Shown: positions 4 through 39,630 of the stretch, piece by piece
How the letters are laid out: every line of letters starts with the position of its first letter
How positions within the stretch are numbered: the first letter of the stretch is position 1
DNA from: a virus
Lineage: Duplodnaviria > Caudoviricetes
Direction: 5' to 3' (one strand)
DNA: 64,000 nt
Virus record (IMG/VR): IMGVR_UViG_3300043388_000012
Span: 1 to 64,000 of that record
The notes under the pieces: model-generated
Database searches by the model: none
What the model saw: the letters and a program-made list of their open reading frames with translations, nothing else
Told to the model about the DNA's origin: nothing
Made by a program: the position numbers and the translations under genes

Positions 4-465
4 TTGATCGCGATTGTCGAGAAGCACACTCGCGAAGACTACGGGCAGATCGGCTACGCGAAGCTTCGCATGATCGCGGCTGTGTCAGATGGCGATACGA
101 AGGCGGAGCTGATGTCAGCTGCACGCGGCGGAGCGACGACGAAGCAGATCGCTGCACGTGTATCAGGCGCGACGGCTCCGACAGCTGCGACGAAGAAGCC
201 AGCACCTCCCGAAGAGAAGGGCGAGAAGATCACGCTCATCGGGAAGATCGGTGCTCGTAACCAGGTCGTGAAGTTCCATGATGCAGACTCGGACGGCGAG
301 CTCATCGAAGCCGCGGGCGTGTTCAAGTCGCATACGGCGAGTGCGTACGGAGAGCTCGAAGTTGCAGATGGCGTGTTCCTACGGGTCGGGTTGCGCGTCA
401 ACGACAAGAAGGAATTGGAGGGCCTGACAGTTCGCTTTGTCCGAGCAGCCGACGCGGCGGAATAG
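4..465 (+). CDS. Hypothetical protein, possibly 5'-truncated
   Basis: 153 aa ORF at the window edge, co-oriented with and abutting the polymerase gene; no motif recognised. Confidence 0.6.
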   Translation: MIAIVEKHTREDYGQIGYAKLRMIAAVSDGDTKAELMSAARGGATTKQIAARVSGATAPTAATKKPAPPEEKGEKITLIGKIGARNQVVKFHDADSDGELIEAAGVFKSHTASAYGELEVADGVFLRVGLRVNDKKELEGLTVRFVRAADAAE

Positions 466-3217
466 TGTTTGTGTGGAACTCGTATCAGGCTGGTCGGATG
501 ACAATCACGTCTACCTTGTCGAGAGGGTAGAGCAGGACGTGAAAGTGCGAAGGATGCGGGCCAAGTGGTCCGCATTTTTCGTTGGTCTCGGCGACGATGA
601 TCGACTCACGCTGCAGAGAGCCCGGGAGGTGATTGGGCTCTCAGTCAGTGGCAAGTACACAAGGGTTGACTTCGCAAACAGGTGGGCGCGTAAGGACCTT
701 GTTTGGAAGCTCAACCAAGCGGTTCAAGGCGCGCGCGCCGCAGGTGATATGGAGTCGGCGATCCTCGAAGCCGACGTGATGCCACTGCGGCGGTTCATGA
801 GCGACCATGGCACGGCGACGGTCTCAACTAGTCCTCGCTGTTTGTGGTTCGACTTGGAGACCGACAGCCGCTGCAAGTTCGTCGATGCGGTCGAGCATGG
901 CAAGGCGCGGATCCTGTGCTGGTCAGCGTCGGAGCTACACAACGGCGAAGCGCGCATCGTTGCTTCGGGAGTGCTTGCATCAGACACAGACGCTGCAGAG
1001 AGTGCGTTGATCGAAGACTTCCTGAACGTAGCGCGGCGGTATGACGTGCTGCTTGCATGGTCGGGAGACGGCTTCGACTTCAAGGTGCTCGCGAAGCGCG
1101 TTGACAGGCTCCACGTGAAGCTTGGCGGCATGGCTCCGCTGTGGAATCGATGGTGCTGGCTCGACTGTATGGAGGTCTTCAAGAAGTACCATGCACACGT
1201 GCACGAGAGCGGGGAAGAGAAGACTAGCTTCAAGCTGAACTCTATCGCACAGGCCGTGTTAGGCGAAGGTAAGAAGGAGTTCGCCGCATCGCGCACTTGG
1301 GAGGCATGGGCAGCTGGGGGCGAAGAGAGACAGAAGCTGCTCGAATACAACGAGCAGGACACGATCCTCATGCCGAAGATCGAACGGCAGACAGGTTACG
1401 TAGCGCTGCACGTTGCTGTGTGTTCTGTCACTCGCTGCTTCCCTGACAGTCGATCGCTTCATGCGTCGCAACAAGGCGACGGCTTCTTGCTCCGACTCGG
1501 AGAGATACACGGGCATCGCTGGCCGACGAAAAAAGACTACGAAGAGACAGAGAAGTATGCAGGCGCGTATGTGATGGATCCGACTCGAACGGGAATCATC
1601 GAGAACGTGCATGTTGCCGACTTCGCCTCGCTGTATCCAAGCATCATGCGCAGCTGGAATATAAGCCCGGAGACGGCTCTCTATCGGCTTCAGAGCGATC
1701 CTCCCGAAGGTAGCTGCAGATTGCCCTATACAGACATGCTGCGCTTCTCGAAGGCGGCCAGAGGCATGTTTCCGCGTGCTCTCGACTTCCTTGTAGCGGA
1801 GCGTGCGGCGTACTCACGCAAGCAGGATGCAGCCGAGCCAGGTTCGCCTGATTGGGAGCGCTACAAGCGACTGTCAGGTGCATACAAGATCGTCGCTAAC
1901 TCGTTTTACGGGATCATGGGCAGTCCATATGCGCGGTTCTTCAGCTCGACTGCTGCGGAGGCTGTAACGCAGACGGGCGCTTGGCTGATCAAGAAGGTTG
2001 CGAGCACGAGCAAGGAAGCAGGCCTAGACGCCTTCTACGGCGACACAGACTCCTGCTTTGTGTCAGGTGACTACAACCGGTTCGCAGGCGTAGTCCGCTC
2101 GCTCAATGAATCGTGGAAGCCGATGATGCTCGACGGTCTCGACTGTCAAGAGTGTCACATCAAGTTGGAGTTTGAGAAGTCCTTCAAGCGGATCGTGCTC
2201 GTGTCTGCGAAGCGGTATATCGGGCGCTTCACGATCTACAAGGGCAAGGAAGTCGGCGGCAAAAAGATCGAGGTCAAAGGGCTCGAATACAAGCGCGGCG
2301 ATACGATGCGCTTCGCTCGCTCGATGCAGAAGGAGTTGATAGACCTGCTTCTGGCCGATGAAGTGCCGACTATCGGAGTTGTGCGGCAGTTCGTTGCCGG
2401 ATGGAAAGATCGTGTGCTGAACGGCGAGCTCTCGATCGATGACATCGTATTGAGTCAGAGCGTTCAGGACCTAGACGACTACGCGGAGCGATACACAACT
2501 GCGGTCTGCACTGGCGGCAAGCCAAAGGCCAAGTGCAAGTATGAGTTTCGCTCAACGTCTATCGAGCCGGGGGCTCCGACCAAATGCCCGAAGTGCGGGC
2601 AGGCTCGAAAGGTCGCGTCTCCGCCTGTGCACGTGCGTGTAGCGAAGGTATTGGCAGAGCGCGGCGAAGAGATCCGTTCCGGCACTCGCATCGAGTATCT
2701 GATAGTCAGCGAAGAAGGTGACACTATCGATGCTGTGCCTGCACGCGACGAAGGCGCGATGCAGCAAATCAATCGACAGTACTACTGGAACAAGCGGATC
2801 TATCCAGCGACCGCACGCGTACTCGAGAGCGCGTTTCCAGATGAAGGGTGGGTCGAGACCACTCAAGAGAAGAAGATACGCAAGAAGCGAGAGCTGATTG
2901 AGAAGCACAAAGGCACGGTTGGGCTTCCGCTCTTCGCGGCTCGTGCTGACGATCCTGATGCGCATCTCGTGATTACGCTCGATCGTCAGCTCGATGCGAG
3001 CGTCGACATGCAGAAACTGAAGCGTGTGTTGCAGTCGTGCCGCGGCGAGCGGCCAGTGCGGTTGAAGTTCGTCGGAGTTGGGTCGCTCGGAGTTGGGTCG
3101 CTCGCAGAGTTGAAGCTGAGCCGCTATCCGGTCGCAGTGACCGAACAGACGCTAAAACAGATAGAAAGCGTTTGCGGCGCTGGTTGCGTGTCCTTCGAGG
3201 CTTCGACTCGCAACTAA
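437..3217 (+). CDS. polB: Family B DNA polymerase with 3'-5' exonuclease (start possibly GTG 473)
   Basis: ExoI FDLETD, ExoII AWSGDGFD, ExoIII YNEQD; Pol motif A DFASLYPSIM, motif B KIVANSFYG, motif C YGDTDS, then KRY and KGLE. Confidence 0.97.
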   Translation: MSEQPTRRNSVCVELVSGWSDDNHVYLVERVEQDVKVRRMRAKWSAFFVGLGDDDRLTLQRAREVIGLSVSGKYTRVDFANRWARKDLVWKLNQAVQGARAAGDMESAILEADVMPLRRFMSDHGTATVSTSPRCLWFDLETDSRCKFVDAVEHGKARILCWSASELHNGEARIVASGVLASDTDAAESALIEDFLNVARRYDVLLAWSGDGFDFKVLAKRVDRLHVKLGGMAPLWNRWCWLDCMEVFKKYHAHVHESGEEKTSFKLNSIAQAVLGEGKKEFAASRTWEAWAAGGEERQKLLEYNEQDTILMPKIERQTGYVALHVAVCSVTRCFPDSRSLHASQQGDGFLLRLGEIHGHRWPTKKDYEETEKYAGAYVMDPTRTGIIENVHVADFASLYPSIMRSWNISPETALYRLQSDPPEGSCRLPYTDMLRFSKAARGMFPRALDFLVAERAAYSRKQDAAEPGSPDWERYKRLSGAYKIVANSFYGIMGSPYARFFSSTAAEAVTQTGAWLIKKVASTSKEAGLDAFYGDTDSCFVSGDYNRFAGVVRSLNESWKPMMLDGLDCQECHIKLEFEKSFKRIVLVSAKRYIGRFTIYKGKEVGGKKIEVKGLEYKRGDTMRFARSMQKELIDLLLADEVPTIGVVRQFVAGWKDRVLNGELSIDDIVLSQSVQDLDDYAERYTTAVCTGGKPKAKCKYEFRSTSIEPGAPTKCPKCGQARKVASPPVHVRVAKVLAERGEEIRSGTRIEYLIVSEEGDTIDAVPARDEGAMQQINRQYYWNKRIYPATARVLESAFPDEGWVETTQEKKIRKKRELIEKHKGTVGLPLFAARADDPDAHLVITLDRQLDASVDMQKLKRVLQSCRGERPVRLKFVGVGSLGVGSLAELKLSRYPVAVTEQTLKQIESVCGAGCVSFEASTRN

Positions 3218-3910: not shown

Positions 3911-5389
3911 ATGACATCTGCAGGCGGCCTAGGAATAGCGAGCTTCATCAAGCATACAAGCGAAGGCGGAGGCGGGAAGGATTGGCTCAAGGCATGGCAC
4001 AAGGGAGGTAAGGGAGAGGTCACGATCTGGCTGCATACTCGGGCGCCGATCGTTCCAACACTCACTCATTCGTTCATGCTCGAAGACGAGTTCGAGGATA
4101 AAGAGACTGGGCGAATGAAGCCGGTCCTGCGTTATCCGCGGTTTGTTAGTCCGGATGGCGAGAGCGTTGCTCGCAACCAGTACTTCAGAAACGACGACGC
4201 GCACAAGTCGCTGCAGGTTCCTCCCGATCGCGATCCGTTCTTGTTGCTGCGAGAGTGGCTGCGGCTCGCTGATCATCTCCCGCTCGATGCGCCGATTTTC
4301 AAATGGAATGATGAGAAGAACAGGAAGGTCATCGTTTGGGAGCGAGCCGAGATCTCGTTGCTTGTGAAGCGTGGCAAGCAGAACTTCAACCACTCGCTCG
4401 ATGTGAAAGTCGAATACGTGTACGTCGCAGTCGATAACGACAGCGTCAGTTCAGGGCCCGTGCTGATGCGCGAGGGCAAGTTGCTCAGTCAGAAGATCGT
4501 CGAAGTCATCAAGCAGCAGCAGAAGATGCACGGCGAAGAAGAAGGCGATCCGATGCAGCACCCCTATGCATTTCTGCTAACGGCAGAAGATGCATCGAGC
4601 CCGATGAATGTTTACAAGGCGTTCAAAAACGAGAAGGCGGTCTTCACAGATGAAGTGTGGGCTGCGATCTCGGGCGATGACTTCCCTGACCCGCTACCGT
4701 ATGGGCAACCGTCAGAGGGTGATTCGGAGAAGATCCGCGACGCGTTCGAGAAGGCAGCACAGGTCGACCTCCCGCTCGATCAAATCTTCTCGGAAGACCC
4801 GGAGGTTCGTCGTCAGCTACTCAAGCCAACGGGAATGAATAGGCCTCCTGCAAGGGCTTCCAAGGCGGCGCAAACGCGAGCCGCGCAGAACCCCCCGCCT
4901 CCAACTCGCGACGCCAAGCCGCAGCCAGCTACAGCTGCGGCGAAGCCGAATGGAGCGGGAGCAAGTGCGGCGACGACTGCTAGTAAGCCAGCGCCAACGG
5001 CTACCGGGAGCCCGCAACTGCGGCGGAAGAAAGTAGAGCCAGCTCCAGAGCCAGAGCCCGAAGTTGAGAAGGTACCGTGCGAAGACTGTGGCCATCAGAT
5101 GCTCGTCACAGACACGAAGTGTGCTGGTTGCGGCGCGGAGTATGAGCCGATCGTCGATGACACTCCGCCTCCGCAGCCTGAGCCAGCGAAGCCTGCAGGT
5201 GCAAAGCCGGGCACGAAGCCGAAGCCATCTAGCACCGTAGCATCTGCTGCGAAACCAGCTGCAGCTGCTACGGCTGCGAGCGCTCCGACGTCGGCTGATC
5301 TGAATTGCTGGTCGTGCGGCGTTGAGCTCAACGGGGCAACTCAATGCCCGTCGTGCCACGTTGATCAAGGCGACGATCTCCCGTTCTGA
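3911..5389 (+). CDS. Putative single-stranded DNA-binding protein with Pro/Ala linkers and zinc ribbons
   Basis: Ends in GDDLPF (SSB-type acidic tail); CEDC..CAGC and CWSC..CPSC pairs; directly upstream of recA. Confidence 0.55.
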   Translation: MTSAGGLGIASFIKHTSEGGGGKDWLKAWHKGGKGEVTIWLHTRAPIVPTLTHSFMLEDEFEDKETGRMKPVLRYPRFVSPDGESVARNQYFRNDDAHKSLQVPPDRDPFLLLREWLRLADHLPLDAPIFKWNDEKNRKVIVWERAEISLLVKRGKQNFNHSLDVKVEYVYVAVDNDSVSSGPVLMREGKLLSQKIVEVIKQQQKMHGEEEGDPMQHPYAFLLTAEDASSPMNVYKAFKNEKAVFTDEVWAAISGDDFPDPLPYGQPSEGDSEKIRDAFEKAAQVDLPLDQIFSEDPEVRRQLLKPTGMNRPPARASKAAQTRAAQNPPPPTRDAKPQPATAAAKPNGAGASAATTASKPAPTATGSPQLRRKKVEPAPEPEPEVEKVPCEDCGHQMLVTDTKCAGCGAEYEPIVDDTPPPQPEPAKPAGAKPGTKPKPSSTVASAAKPAAAATAASAPTSADLNCWSCGVELNGATQCPSCHVDQGDDLPF

Positions 5390-20239: not shown

Positions 20240-20983
20240 ATGCCTCCGCGCAAACAGACCACTGACCCGAGCATCGCGATCGCTTACCTCCGCGTCTCGA
20301 GTGACGAGCAAACCGTTCGGCAGCAACGGGAGGAGATCGAGCGTTGGGCCCGCTCGCAGCGCATCACGATCGCGGAGTGGTTCTCCGATGATGGAGTGAG
20401 CGGAGCGGCGGAGCTCTCCATCGCAAAGCGGCCTGGCATGATGGGAGCCATCGCGGCTCTCAAGACACATCGAGCTGGCTTGCTCGTTGCGTGGAAGCGA
20501 GACCGGCTTGCTCGATGCGTAGCGAGCGCTGCGGCCATCGAGAAGCTCTGCAAGGAGCAAGGCTCGAAGGTCGTAACCGCGGATGGGCTCGATGCGAGTG
20601 ATACGCCAGAGGGCATGCTCGTGCGCTCCATGCTGGACGTGATTGCAGCCTACGAGCTGGAGTTGATCCGTGTACGCACGCGCATAGCGATGGCCTCGAA
20701 GAAAAAACGAGGGGAGGCGGTAGGGTCAGCACCCTACGGCTGGAAAAACTTGGGCCGCATCGAAGTGCAGGGGGGTAAGTCGGTCGGAGGTCGCTTGGAA
20801 AGGGTGCCAGAGGAACAGGCCACCATCGCGCGTATACGCCTCCTGCAGGCATCCGGACTCTCGCATAGGGGGATTGCTCTAGCGCTCACGAGAGAGGGCT
20901 ACAGGGCCCGTGGGAAGGCTTGGCATGCGACCACAGTACAGCGCGTGTTGAGTGCGCTACGCATGGCCAGAGAGGCGGCTTGA
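20240..20983 (+). CDS. Serine recombinase (catalytic domain plus short recombinase domain)
   Basis: AYLRVSSDEQ (catalytic Ser), DGVSG, RPG, WKRDRLAR, GSAPYGW. Confidence 0.92.
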   Translation: MPPRKQTTDPSIAIAYLRVSSDEQTVRQQREEIERWARSQRITIAEWFSDDGVSGAAELSIAKRPGMMGAIAALKTHRAGLLVAWKRDRLARCVASAAAIEKLCKEQGSKVVTADGLDASDTPEGMLVRSMLDVIAAYELELIRVRTRIAMASKKKRGEAVGSAPYGWKNLGRIEVQGGKSVGGRLERVPEEQATIARIRLLQASGLSHRGIALALTREGYRARGKAWHATTVQRVLSALRMAREAA

Positions 20984-28718: not shown

Positions 28719-28938
28719 TCATGGAGTTGGTCGAGCGTGCTCGCGTGCGTGCGGATGGCGACAAGCCGACAGGGCATGTTGCATGGTCCGAGTATGCGAC
28801 CGCGTATAACATCCATGTTTGGAGACATGGCCACGTGCTTACAGCTCGCGAGTTCCTAGAGTCAGGCGGCTTCCGATACGGAGAGCTGCTCGACCTGCTC
28901 GGCTGTGAGCCAAAGACTTGGGAGCCTGTGTCGCTCTG

Positions 28939-31725
28939 ATGCGTTACCGAGTGAAATGGGCGGCGACGATCGCGGCATCCACGCTCGCAGCGTCAACGAC
29001 GCTAGCTAGTCCGGGTCATGATGTTCTAGCCAGTGAGGCGGCGAGCGAGAATGTAACCTCGAGGATACAAAAACCGCGGCTCCGAGTGCGTATCGTTCCG
29101 CCTCCTGTGCGGCCGCAGGAGCCGAGCAAGGAACCGAAGCCCCCGTTGCGCCTTGAGACGCCTCCCGGGTTTCCTGAGCCAGCTCCGGAGCCGGATGACG
29201 TCGAAGACGACGGGGCAACCGATCAAGAGATTCAGATGGCTCTGCTGCACAAGGCGGCGGAGGCGAAGGCCAAGTATCACGAGCTCTGCCGCAACGACAT
29301 AGACGCCTTCTGTGAGTACGTACTGAAAGACGTCGACGGCAAGGCGATCGAGCAGAACGCCTTTCACGAGCAGCTTCAGCGCGATCTGACAGTACACAGG
29401 CAGATCGTTGTCATCAGCCATCCTGAGAGCGGGAAGGCGCTGACGCTCGATACAGAGATTCCGACGCCAGACGGCTGGCGGACGATGGGATCGCTGAAGT
29501 GCGGCGATCGTGTGTTCGGAGGCGATGGCAAGCCGTGCTTAGTTACGTTTGCGACGCCTGTGCAGCTGGGTCGACGCGTGTTCGAAGTTGAGTTCGAAGA
29601 TGGCTCGATTCTCAAGGCGGATGCCGATCATCAATGGCATGTTCGCAAGCGGCAGGCGTTCGGCACTCGAGTTGTCACAACGCTCGACATGCAGCGCAAG
29701 CTCACGGAGTCAGACGGTCATTTTGTGTGGTCGGTACCGTGCACTGGAGCAGTGCAGTATGAGCGACACAGGTTGCTTGTTGACCCGTATGTGTTGGGAG
29801 CATGGCTCGGCGACGGCACTGCGAGCGATGCTTCGTTGACGTTCGGCGAGGCGGATAGCTTCGTTTGGGAAGAGTGCGTTGCACGAGTCGGCGGCAGAGC
29901 TCCGCGCGTGGATAGGCACAACGGGCATGTGAAGACCGGGACTCTCGGGTCAGGGTGGGGAGCGATCCGCGGTAGGTTGCGTCGCTTGCGAGTGCTGGAT
30001 GACAAGCATATCCCGACCAACTATCTGACGGCTTCTGTGTACGATCGACGGGAGCTGCTAGCCGGCCTGCTCGATACTGACGGGAGCGTGAGTCGAGCAG
30101 CCGGAGGAAGCTCACGAGTCGAGCTCACGCTCTGCAACGGCAGGCTCGCGAGTGACTCACTCGAGTTGATTCGGTCGCTGGGTTTCCGCGCAACGATGAA
30201 GGAGTCCGACTCCTGTTTGAACGGGCGCGTAGTCGGTCGGCGTTGGCGGATCTGTTTCACAGCGCGTGAGCCGGTGTTCCGGTTGCCACGGAAGCTCGCG
30301 AAGCAGCAGCTAGGCGGCTCGACTCGTACGAGTTGGAAGCATGTCGTTGCGATTCGCGAGATCGAGTCGGTCCCGGTTCGCTGCATTGCGGTCGATAGTG
30401 AGAACCGAACGTATCTCGCTGGCCGGGCGTACACGGTCACGCACAACACCTCTCAGATAGCCGTTGGGCGCGTGTTGTTTGAGCTAGGGCGCAACCCGAA
30501 CTTGCGCGTGATGCTGCTCTACAACGCGGAAGAAGCCGCGGTCAACACGCTCTCGACGATCAAGAAGTACATCGAAGACAGCGAAGAGCTGCATGCGGTC
30601 TTCCCCAATCTCAGACGCGGGCAGATTTGGAAAGATGACGCGATCGTTGTTCAGCGCTCTGCCTACGATCGTAACCCGTCGATCGTTGCAGTCGGTTACA
30701 ACAGCCGACGCATCGGCGGTTCGCGCGTCGACTTCCTAGTCATCGATGACTTGCTCGACCAGACAGTCACGGCGAGCGAGATACAGCGCCGCAAGCTGTC
30801 GAGCTGGGTAAAGAGCACGGTCCTAACGCGTATCACTGCGCACGCAATGATCGCGTTTCTCACGAACGCTTGGCATCCGCGCGACCTCGCACACGAGTCG
30901 GTCAAGGATCGCGGCTGGCATCTCATCAAGCGGCCGATCCGTAATCCGGATGGCGCGATCTCCTGGCATCTGTGGACTGAAGAGCGGCTCAAGCTCAAGC
31001 GCAAGGATCTCGGAGCTCTCGAGTACGCACGTTCGTTCGAGTGCGATCCGCGCGATGACTCTTCGCGTGTGTTCCGGCCTGAACACGTCGAGTATGCGCA
31101 GAAGAAGCGCGGAGCCGGTTACGGCTTCTTGCACTCGCTCGATATCATGCCCGATCGCTCGCTCGTTGTGACCGGCATCGACTTGGCGGCTGGCGACGAC
31201 ACGAAGAAGATCGGTGCTCGCACTGCGATCGTCAGCGTGTTCTTCCATCCCAATCAGGATCGGCAGGTCGTGCGCATCCGCTCCGGTCGTTGGCGCGCGC
31301 GGCAGATTTTGGATGAAGTTGCGGCGGTCGGTCATCTCTTCCCGCGCAACCATTGGATCGTGGTCGAGAACAACGGTGTTCAGCGCTGGATTCTCGACCT
31401 GGCTAACGAGCATGACATGGACGTCGGCGTTGCTCTCGTGCCGTTCCGTACAGGCCGCAACAAGAGTGATCCTCGCTTCGGCGTGGCATCGATGGCGGCC
31501 GAGTACGAGGCTCGCCGTTGGATTTTGCCGGATGCCTGCGAGACCGAAGACGAGCAGAACGAAGTCGAGAGCGTCGTATCGCAGATGATCGATTATGTGC
31601 CGGAAGCGCATACGGGCGATGCGCTAATGGCGAAGTGGTTCGCGCGCGAAGTCGGCAGGAAGATCTTCATGCGGTTCTTCGGACCCGGAGCTACTGGCGG
31701 TTCCATCGTGCGCGCGATCGGGTAG
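28939..31725 (+). CDS. terL: Terminase large subunit with intein
   Basis: Walker A PESGK|T split by the intein, Walker B FLVIDD, nuclease TGIDLA, VENNG, HTGDALMA; ATG 28939 overlaps the preceding TGA. Confidence 0.92.
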   Translation: MRYRVKWAATIAASTLAASTTLASPGHDVLASEAASENVTSRIQKPRLRVRIVPPPVRPQEPSKEPKPPLRLETPPGFPEPAPEPDDVEDDGATDQEIQMALLHKAAEAKAKYHELCRNDIDAFCEYVLKDVDGKAIEQNAFHEQLQRDLTVHRQIVVISHPESGKALTLDTEIPTPDGWRTMGSLKCGDRVFGGDGKPCLVTFATPVQLGRRVFEVEFEDGSILKADADHQWHVRKRQAFGTRVVTTLDMQRKLTESDGHFVWSVPCTGAVQYERHRLLVDPYVLGAWLGDGTASDASLTFGEADSFVWEECVARVGGRAPRVDRHNGHVKTGTLGSGWGAIRGRLRRLRVLDDKHIPTNYLTASVYDRRELLAGLLDTDGSVSRAAGGSSRVELTLCNGRLASDSLELIRSLGFRATMKESDSCLNGRVVGRRWRICFTAREPVFRLPRKLAKQQLGGSTRTSWKHVVAIREIESVPVRCIAVDSENRTYLAGRAYTVTHNTSQIAVGRVLFELGRNPNLRVMLLYNAEEAAVNTLSTIKKYIEDSEELHAVFPNLRRGQIWKDDAIVVQRSAYDRNPSIVAVGYNSRRIGGSRVDFLVIDDLLDQTVTASEIQRRKLSSWVKSTVLTRITAHAMIAFLTNAWHPRDLAHESVKDRGWHLIKRPIRNPDGAISWHLWTEERLKLKRKDLGALEYARSFECDPRDDSSRVFRPEHVEYAQKKRGAGYGFLHSLDIMPDRSLVVTGIDLAAGDDTKKIGARTAIVSVFFHPNQDRQVVRIRSGRWRARQILDEVAAVGHLFPRNHWIVVENNGVQRWILDLANEHDMDVGVALVPFRTGRNKSDPRFGVASMAAEYEARRWILPDACETEDEQNEVESVVSQMIDYVPEAHTGDALMAKWFAREVGRKIFMRFFGPGATGGSIVRAIG
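29052..29069. promoter_or_regulatory. Motif A site
   Basis: TGTAACCTCGAGGATACA, in the 5' part of terL. Confidence 0.85.
29437..30447 (+). mobile_element. Class-3 intein with LAGLIDADG homing endonuclease (337 aa)
   Basis: Starts ALTLDT, ends THN before T; block B HQW, block F VRCIAV, block G T; YVLGAWLGDG and LLAGLLDTDG. Confidence 0.92.
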
Positions 31726-37921: not shown

Positions 37922-38256
37922 TGACCAAGGAAGCGCAGCAAACCGACCCGCTCGACATGACGTTGCGCGAGCTTCTGGCGGCACTCGTTGATCGAGCAGG
38001 AGCCAGCGCGAACGATGAAGAATGGATCAACATCCGCGGAGAGGTTTACCCATGGCGGCGCATCATCGCAGCTGCGGAGCGCGGCGAGTGCGAGGTGAGC
38101 CGCGTCGGTCGGCGGTTGATGATGCGGCGTTCGGAGCTGAGCAAGTTCTTGGCTGCAAGGCGCATCGGTCCGAAGAAGGTTGAACCTAAGACCGATGCGC
38201 CTACGAGCGAGCTAGACAGGTCAGTGCAGCGAGCGCTTCGCCGTAACGGGCTCTAG
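37921..38256 (+). CDS. xis: Excisionase-like winged HTH protein
   Basis: AAERGECEVSRVGRRLMMRRSELSKFL; convergent with and overlapping the integrase end. Confidence 0.65.
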   Translation: MTKEAQQTDPLDMTLRELLAALVDRAGASANDEEWINIRGEVYPWRRIIAAAERGECEVSRVGRRLMMRRSELSKFLAARRIGPKKVEPKTDAPTSELDRSVQRALRRNGL

Positions 38257-39560
38257 TGTTTCGAGAGCCGTGAGACGTTCATGGCGGCGAGCTCTGGGAT
38301 CGCGAGAGAGATATCGGGGAACGGACCCGGGTTGAGCTGGAGGTCTTCGAGGCTCCGCGCCGCTCGGACGTAGCGATCCATGATCTCCTTCGTGATGTGA
38401 CCGGTTCGATCTGTGATCCATCCATCGCTTTTGCCAGCTCGCTTAGCCCAAGTGACGAAGGTCGCTCGCAGGTCGTGAAAGCGCAACGCTTGGATCTTGT
38501 CTGTGTTGCTGAAGAGTATCCCTCGAGTGACACCAGCGCAGAGCAGATCCTTGCGAAGGGTCTCGGCTTCGAAGCGGCGTCTGCAGTGCAGTGTGGAGAT
38601 GACCGGCTTCGAGTCAGAGGGCCAGCCGCAGTATTCTCGCCATCTACGTAAGAGCTCGATGAGCGAACCGATTCCCGGTGACTCCGCGTCGCGTTGCACG
38701 AACATCACGGGATGATCGTTCTTGTTCACGAGACTCAGGATCGTTGAGTGGGTCAGGTCGATCGAGCTCCAGAGAAAGAACTCGATGCGGCTCTCTTCGT
38801 CGGCGGTAGCACGCGATCGGTTGCCGATTGGGATCGAGCCTTTGCGCAGACCCGTGTACGTAGCTAGCGCGTAGTACACGCGGCGTTCGATCGGGATGGC
38901 GATGCACATCAAGAGAGCAAGGAGCTCGACCGGGTAAAGGTAGCTGTAGAGCTTTGACGGGCCTTTGCTCGGGAGCAGGTCATCGCTGACAGGGTTGTCT
39001 TCGCGAAGCCGACCGGGGCGGATGGCAAGGTCGAAGAGCCGATGCGTGACCATGTACACTTGCCGCTTCGTGCCTTGCTTCGGGTTCTTCTTGTATCGAC
39101 GCTTGTAGGCGACCCATGCAGCTGCGAAGGCTCGCTCGACGTCCTGCTCAGTGACCGCGGAGACCGCCATGTCTCCGAGGTATGGGTACACGTGTTGTTC
39201 GAGGCGACGCACGTCATCTTCGGCAGACTTCTTGATCTTGAGTCGTTTCACTTCGCCGTATTTTTGATGCAGCTTGCCCGACGTCCATTCCTCTCCGAAT
39301 GCTCTGACCTTCTTTTCAGCTCGGAGCCGTTCGGGCATCTCTGCTGCGGGGTTTCGAAATGCAGTCGAGAACTTTTTCGCCGCAGCTTGAGCGGCATCCT
39401 TGTCTGCTTCCTTGTTCGTGTAGAGAGGTCGACCATCGTCGGCAAGCATCTCTTCGCGGATGCGGCTTCCGCGAACGCTGATCTTCGCAACGTAGCGGCC
39501 GCCCTTCGTAGGCAACCACTCGGCAGAGCCTGTCGCTGGCTTGGTTTCGCTTGGTTTCAT
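38253..39560 (-). CDS. int: Tyrosine integrase
   Basis: TGLRKGS (R), FHDLRATF (HxxR), TGH, MDRY (Y); likely start ATG 39560, downstream of the arm repeats. Confidence 0.93.
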   Translation of the reverse strand: MKPSETKPATGSAEWLPTKGGRYVAKISVRGSRIREEMLADDGRPLYTNKEADKDAAQAAAKKFSTAFRNPAAEMPERLRAEKKVRAFGEEWTSGKLHQKYGEVKRLKIKKSAEDDVRRLEQHVYPYLGDMAVSAVTEQDVERAFAAAWVAYKRRYKKNPKQGTKRQVYMVTHRLFDLAIRPGRLREDNPVSDDLLPSKGPSKLYSYLYPVELLALLMCIAIPIERRVYYALATYTGLRKGSIPIGNRSRATADEESRIEFFLWSSIDLTHSTILSLVNKNDHPVMFVQRDAESPGIGSLIELLRRWREYCGWPSDSKPVISTLHCRRRFEAETLRKDLLCAGVTRGILFSNTDKIQALRFHDLRATFVTWAKRAGKSDGWITDRTGHITKEIMDRYVRAARSLEDLQLNPGPFPDISLAIPELAAMNVSRLSKH

Positions 39561-39581
39561 GCGCTTTGCTGCTTCCCGTGG

Positions 39582-39630
39582 GGAGAATCGTCCAGACAGC
39601 TCGGAGAATCGTCCATGCAACTGTCCAGAC
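39582..39630. repeat. Left arm-type Int-binding repeats
   Basis: GGAGAATCGTCCA at 39582 and 39603, plus related TGTCCAGAC ending at 39630. Confidence 0.75.

Follow-up and report, generated by a model that had tools for sequence, protein, structure and literature searches.

The family-B DNA polymerase (PolB) of an uncultured phage ends in a tail that is very probably a homologue of the tau-binding domain of DnaE, the alpha subunit of bacterial DNA polymerase III (Pol III). The polymerase gene occupies positions 437-3217 of a 64,000-nucleotide stretch – referred to here as the window – which is the first 64 kb of the 82,209-bp IMG/VR virus record IMGVR_UViG_3300043388_000012, a linear sequence without end repeats that is 75% complete as estimated by CheckV. 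Shortly before the tail lies a short peptide, GLPLF, that is a putative binding motif for the bacterial beta clamp. We lean, with modest confidence, towards the reading that the PolB C-terminus comprises two modules for docking on the bacterial Pol III holoenzyme, a beta-clamp-binding peptide followed by a captured tau-binding domain, which would bind beta and tau and so influence replication. An earlier sequence-only reading of the window had suggested that such a PolB may plug into the host replisome, and that suggestion is supported by the comparisons described here, with the contacts to host DnaN and to tau standing as predictions.

The tail with the fold of the DnaE tau-binding domain spans positions 2963-3199 (residues 843-921; plus strand, as for all PolB features below), was delimited by profile, model and fold searches, and runs on to residue 926 (nucleotide 3214). 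An alignment-based scan of IMG/VR with the whole PolB recovered members of this polymerase family at 31 loci, on phage contigs 42-114 kb long, whereas back-translated tail peptides found no relatives in that database. Thirteen phage tails – that of the window and those of 12 IMG/VR loci – were aligned to give a profile (A2), which has three significant matches in the PDB, all of them to the extreme C-termini of Pol III alpha subunits. The best is Mycobacterium tuberculosis DnaE1 (7pu7_A, residues 1111-1182 of 1184, E 5.5e-5), followed by residues 1127-1181 of Thermus aquaticus alpha (2hpi/3e0d, E 7e-4), and the next PDB match has an E of 0.09. Against a library of 1.84 billion representative proteins A2 yields 314 matches at E <= 0.001, and the best 150 of these include 17 with a PolB upstream of the match, at least 30 with the DnaE HHH and OB region upstream, and about 15 repetitive false positives; the remainder of the best 150 are mostly short C-terminal fragments, several of which proved on scanning to be DnaE fragments, and one such fragment (P0063) passes the cut-off of PF20914, the Pfam family of the tau-binding domain. 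Genuine DnaE fragments score between E 1e-7 and 1e-4 in this library. In two metagenome-assembled genomes (MAGs) chosen without regard to DnaE, the top A2 matches lie at the C-terminal end of open frames 1211-1212 amino acids (aa) long. An hhalign comparison of A2 with 30 DnaE C-termini, a partly circular test, points the same way, with a probability of 99% and E 4e-18 over 81 columns.

Structural comparison gives the same answer. An AlphaFold2 (AF2) model of the window tail, built without templates and from the 13 phage sequences only, has a mean pLDDT of 79.7 and a beta-alpha-beta-beta-alpha-beta topology, and the first five Foldseek matches to it are all Pol III alpha chains (4iqj, 2hpi and 3e0d). 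In an independent structural search (VIA) the model aligns with residues 1126-1205 of T. aquaticus alpha (2hpi_A) with Z 9.2 and an rmsd of 2.6 A over 78 residues, and with residues 1079-1160 of Escherichia coli alpha (5fku_A) with Z 7.3; the next match has Z 3.8. Residues 1079-1160 are the published tau-binding domain of E. coli alpha (PMC4703070), and it is domain V of tau that binds alpha (PMC10850973). The resemblance between the tail and this domain, which the sequence-only reading had proposed by eye, is thus borne out by both the profile match (7pu7_A, 5.5e-5) and the structural matches (Z 9.2 and 7.3). We regard it as very improbable that the resemblance arose by convergence, or by accident because small alpha/beta folds of this sort are common: the domain has a length of only about 80 aa, nothing is found by single-sequence searches, and middling Z-scores are common for small folds, but profile and structure searches, which differ in kind, both rank Pol III alpha first with a large gap, the matches run end to end and fall at the extreme C-terminus in both families, and the library E-values for genuine DnaE fragments reach 1e-6 to 1e-7.

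Within the tail, positions 3072-3104 (plus strand) form a perfect 15-bp tandem duplication of 2.2 copies (Tandem Repeats Finder score 66, 100% matches), which gives the beta2-beta3 loop a second copy of the five-residue unit GVGSL. The insert is found only in the window phage and in a relative with a 96%-identical polymerase, is absent from homologues P0003-P0012, and coincides with the lowest pLDDT of the model; it looks like a recent in-frame slippage that has been tolerated in a loop.

The GLPLF peptide (positions 2921-2935, residues 829-833) was recognized by its conserved PLF core and its position, and follows a Lys/Arg-rich flexible linker past the thumb (positions 2852-2920, residues 806-828); a basic linker precedes the motif throughout the family. 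A search with PolB residues 690-926 returned 26 homologues, of which 24 were used to score conservation in the alignment. P831, L832 and F833 are conserved in at least 90% of these and the flanking residues are variable, a pattern that goes beyond chance. Close relatives that have no tail terminate 10-25 residues past the sequence DLPLF. In distant relatives (about 35% identity) the basic linker is followed by peptides of the Qxx[LF]F type, which is the classic form for binding bacterial beta; examples are GQGQLF, QRSLF and QLGLF. Many of these proteins have the peptide as their last residues, and others end shortly after it. QLGLF is also the C-terminal end of E. coli Pol II. The window peptide keeps the hydrophobic L-x-L-F pattern, with the leading Gln replaced by Gly, or by Asp in the close relatives. 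We regard GLPLF as a clamp motif because it is conserved and similarly placed across the family, and not on the strength of one pentapeptide; by the same token the family-wide peptide is a putative clamp motif, and a contact with DnaN is predicted. The sequence-only reading, which likened the peptide to the QLxLF type, needs one correction here, as the leading Q is missing both from GLPLF and from DLPLF.

The polymerase that carries these elements is, as judged from its sequence, an intact proofreading family-B replicative enzyme. The gene encodes 926 aa from a TTG start, and its translation places GLPLF and the tail where they had first been reported, with the stop codon at 3215-3217. It was identified by its translation together with Pfam PF00136 (DNA_pol_B; residues 350-685, E 1.1e-48, 166.7 bits against a cut-off of 23) and PHROG 262 (‘DNA polymerase’, E 1.5e-60); the closest PDB sequences are an archaeal PolB (1tgo, 1.8e-39) and E. 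coli Pol II (1q8i, 4.5e-24), the latter with 27% identity to the phage core. An RNase H-like 3'-5' proofreading exonuclease domain is located at positions 902-1381 (residues 156-315; Pfam RNase_H_2 and DNA_pol_B_exo2), and the palm, fingers and thumb core at positions 1484-2491 (residues 350-685; PF00136). The exonuclease residues D139, E141, D214, Y304 and D308, and those of polymerase motifs A (D395/Y400), B (K484/N488/G492) and C (D536/T537/D538), are all invariant across the 24 homologues, which is the reason for regarding the replicase as intact and proofreading. A zinc-ribbon-like insert in the thumb (positions 2507-2596) contains four cysteines – C691, C700, C717 and C720 – conserved in at least 90% of the 24-homologue alignment; it is kept in the wider clade of the window PolB and is absent from P0027, the farthest of the aligned homologues. 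The C-terminal order is thus the four-Cys insert, the Lys/Arg-rich linker, GLPLF, nine further residues, and the tail of about 80 residues. The PolB frames of four relatives (L011, L028, L029 and L030) are 1177-1416 aa long, 250-500 residues longer than those of other family members, and the extra sequence within their polymerase region may represent inteins or other insertions. Neither this record nor any of 31 related phage records has a match to PF07733, the catalytic core of Pol III alpha, and the family-C enzyme DnaE and the phage PolB have just the C-terminal domain in common. Among 50,697 isolate phage genomes the window phage has no close DNA relative, and the top protein identity there is 27-29%.

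The same 32 records, of which 21 have a completeness of at least 90%, were surveyed for clamps and loaders. None has a clamp loader (PF13177) above cut-off, a T4 gp45-type clamp or PCNA; a DnaN beta clamp is present in one record (G019), and a DnaB-like helicase (DnaB_C) in 26. As the family is without a loader and almost always without a clamp, the clamp and its loading must come from the host. The single related phage with a clamp of its own has one of DnaN type, which we count in support of the clamp-motif reading. This clamp lies at G019:C1:67342-67698 (minus strand; 410-aa frame, PF00712 E 1.9e-11); the G019 PolB is tail-less, with GQGQLF as its C-terminal end, and a search of the G019 record for DnaB_C gave no match. 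The sequence-only reading had raised phage-encoded clamp and loader genes elsewhere in the genome as a challenge to host docking, and the survey recovers no loader in any record and a beta clamp in just one.

The replication genes upstream of PolB are not visible in the window, since the record begins 436 nucleotides before the gene. A relative with a 96%-identical PolB (L058) has the full replication module, including 10 kb upstream of PolB, arranged in the order DEAD-box helicase, two small open reading frames (ORFs), DnaB-like helicase (484 aa), DnaG-like primase (320 aa), UvrD-like helicase, a 239-aa protein, a 390-aa protein, PolB, a small ORF, a 493-aa protein, UvsX/RecA, SbcD, another small ORF, and SbcC. 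From PolB onward the window genes match those of this module, and, judged from this relative, the helicase and primase of the window phage are positioned just beyond the contig end. The claim of the sequence-only reading that no clamp, loader or helicase is present holds for the window itself; for the family it must be amended, as a DnaB-like helicase and a DnaG-like primase lie off the end of the contig.

These observations suggest how the two modules may act. The phage would supply a DnaB-like helicase, a DnaG-like primase, recombination proteins and the polymerase, and neither a processivity clamp nor a clamp loader. GLPLF, on its flexible basic linker, would tether PolB to the host beta clamp, and the tail would grip tau in the DnaX clamp loader of the host. 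In this way the loader would be retained at the phage fork, perhaps along with a second polymerase, much as happens with tau and Pol III, and the tail would be a competitor of the host alpha subunit for tau. Relatives with no tail would then act like Pol II or Pol IV, through the clamp only, and those with a tail like Pol III, through both clamp and tau. The order of motif and then domain copies that of Pol III alpha – an internal beta site, an OB domain and the tau-binding domain – and on the simplest reading GLPLF would bind beta and the tail would bind tau.

Several points weigh against this reading or against the homology on which it builds. The window tail alone has no match in a single-sequence Pfam search up to E 10. 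PF20914 finds nothing in the genome of the window phage and matches one of the 13 tails, weakly (E 0.15), although this model is short and insensitive, rising above its cut-off in one of 14 control genomes. A profile of the window clade, set against E. coli alpha alone, gives a collinear match of little strength (P 0.005), and the hhalign comparison is partly circular because its DnaE set had been found with the same tail profile. The canonical Gln is missing from the clamp motif of the window, and about half of the PolB family is without the tail, which is therefore an accessory and not a requirement. Finally, the C-terminal domains of tau in E. coli and T. aquaticus are unrelated and lie on opposite sides of the alpha tail (PMC4703070), so that a shared tail fold does not prove a shared partner.

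This last point bears on the main rival to docking on the host, in which the tail has the DnaE C-terminal fold but binds a phage-encoded protein – the DnaB-like helicase, the primase or the product of a neighbouring gene – and couples polymerase to helicase without host tau. The family does encode its own DnaB-like helicase and DnaG-like primase beside PolB, several neighbouring genes have no assigned function, and the binding modes of the domain differ between lineages (PMC4703070). We nonetheless consider a phage partner unlikely, in that relatives with no tail have this helicase and primase module too, no gene in the 10-kb flanks convincingly tracks the tail, and tau is the only known partner of the domain. 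When the gene content of these flanks was compared with tail presence nothing decisive emerged, the best association being with a UvrD-like gene at an uncorrected p of 0.013. A sequence like tau domain V (PF12170) was likewise not found in the phages, with a weak model that detected the domain in three of 14 control genomes.

The distribution of the tail is patchy. It is present in 14 of the 24 homologues and at 12 of the 31 related IMG/VR loci, and on a PolB tree of 52 family members it requires about seven gains or losses, at least four of which are forced by well-supported branches. The window PolB falls in a supported clade of 14 tail-bearing enzymes that is nested among motif-only forms, and from this nesting it is most likely that in the window lineage the tail was added downstream of a pre-existing C-terminal clamp hook. 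A tree of the tail domain itself (84 columns) is too poorly resolved to separate one capture from DnaE from several. At all loci examined the tail occurs solely within PolB genes, and neither the flanks nor the genome of the window phage yielded a free-standing copy.

This pattern also bears on the idea that the tail is a decoy, which occupies host tau, strips Pol III cores from the loader and halts host replication while having little role in phage synthesis. Competition is to be expected, as host alpha uses this very domain; disabling of host replication is common among phages, and half of the family dispenses with the tail. A decoy would, however, have no need to be fused to a polymerase right after a clamp hook, the motif-then-domain order mimics that of alpha, and no free-standing copy of the tail turned up in the flanks or the genome of the window phage. 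We consider it improbable. No more probable, in our judgement, is an internal role, in which the tail serves the polymerase itself, in regulation or structure, for instance by contact with the clamp or DNA or by covering the clamp motif, and has no external protein partner. The E. coli alpha tail does swing between clamp-bound and clamp-free positions (PMC4703070), and the linker between motif and tail varies from about 10 to about 100 residues across the family; yet the part of E. coli alpha that touches the clamp is the OB domain, absent from PolB, and not the tau-binding domain (PMC4703070), and the long Pro-rich linkers suggest a tethered module that binds independently.

Returning to docking on beta and tau, a broader proposal may be offered more tentatively. 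It is possible that widespread uncultured phages of 70-115 kb build a hybrid replisome, in which PolB, by means of the domain captured from DnaE, replaces the Pol III core on the host tau loader and beta clamp, while a phage DnaB-like helicase and primase drive the fork. As the C-terminal domains of tau differ between bacterial lineages, the tails would be tuned to their hosts, and could be both a determinant of host range and a marker for host prediction. Related contigs have been binned in MAGs of five unrelated groups (Parcubacteria, Armatimonadetes, Methylocystis, an unclassified proteobacterium and Planctomycetota). Among 201 genomes of the phylum of the Methylocystis MAG, A2 reaches roughly DnaE-sized frames (1172-1256 aa) in only six at E <= 0.01.

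The C-terminus of the phage PolB can be compared with several known systems. With the DnaE tau-binding domain (E. coli 1079-1160; PF20914) the tail shares its fold, profile homology and location at the extreme C-terminus downstream of a beta-clamp motif, but it is borne by a family-B and not a family-C polymerase and follows directly on the clamp motif without an OB domain. E. coli Pol II is likewise a proofreading family-B enzyme with a short C-terminal clamp peptide, a layout shared by the phage relatives with no tail; Pol II, in contrast, is a cellular repair and restart polymerase with no tau-binding domain, whereas the phage PolB adds the zinc-ribbon-like insert and the tail and is the only polymerase found in its phage family. 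Among phage enzymes, gp43 of T4 and RB69 achieves processivity through a C-terminal clamp peptide, and T4 encodes its own clamp (gp45) and loader (gp44/62); the family of the window phage differs in that no loader or gp45-type clamp was found. The T7 polymerase gp5, of family A, takes host thioredoxin as its processivity factor, and so differs both in polymerase family and in the host factor recruited. Phage SPP1 provides a precedent for a phage protein that holds tau, as its helicase G40P binds host tau (PMC5737612). It resembles the present case in having a phage-borne helicase and in recruiting the host complex of clamp and tau, and differs in using host PolC and DnaE with the tau contact on the helicase, where here the phage has its own polymerase with a putative tau contact.

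Clamp motifs of the T4 type were covered in a 2011 survey of viral replicases that sought extra domains and clamp motifs in viral PolBs and reported nothing comparable (PMC3201878). Searches of the full-text literature turned up no phage polymerase or family-B polymerase described as bearing a domain of the tau-binding or DnaE C-terminal kind, and the arrangement described here is a new domain architecture made from known parts. In the usual view, bacterial replisomes centre on family-C polymerases, since no others carry the contacts to tau by which the fork is organised. If the docking reading is true, the clamp-loader hub can accept a polymerase of another family, and the capture of a host replicase domain would be a new route by which phages take over host replication. 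Natural relatives with and without the tail would then offer a system for testing what tau binding alone gives a polymerase, and we expect these enzymes to be of interest to both replication and phage biologists.

Three proteins encoded near PolB were considered as cryptic clamps and rejected. The 3' part of the gene for the 390-aa protein occupies positions 1-465 of the window (plus strand), the full gene being that of the relative (L058:8857-10029); its AF2 model consists of a Cys4 ribbon, a ParB/Noc-like DNA-binding domain and a C-terminal beta-barrel, and the Foldseek match to ParB/Noc has a probability of about 1 but an E of only 0.1. The protein is kept in relatives; it may bind the origin or organise the replisome. 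A 492-aa protein encoded between PolB and UvsX (window positions 3911-5389) has no Pfam or PHROG match, and the sole lead is that its neighbour clusters in a protein atlas carry gp32 (PF08804) in 11-19% of members; the protein may thus be a single-strand-binding protein that has diverged. The third candidate, the 239-aa protein, has weak matches to sigma factors.

The window contains no tRNA genes. A serine recombinase or invertase is encoded at positions 20240-20983 and a tyrosine integrase at 38253-39620 (minus strand), in a phage of the approximately 110-kb class that has its own replisome genes; the presence of both suggests a temperate lifestyle or invertible segments. The large terminase (positions 28918-31725) is unusually long at 935 aa, with terminase matches that start at about residue 150 and fall in two stretches, and it may contain an N-terminal extension or an insert.

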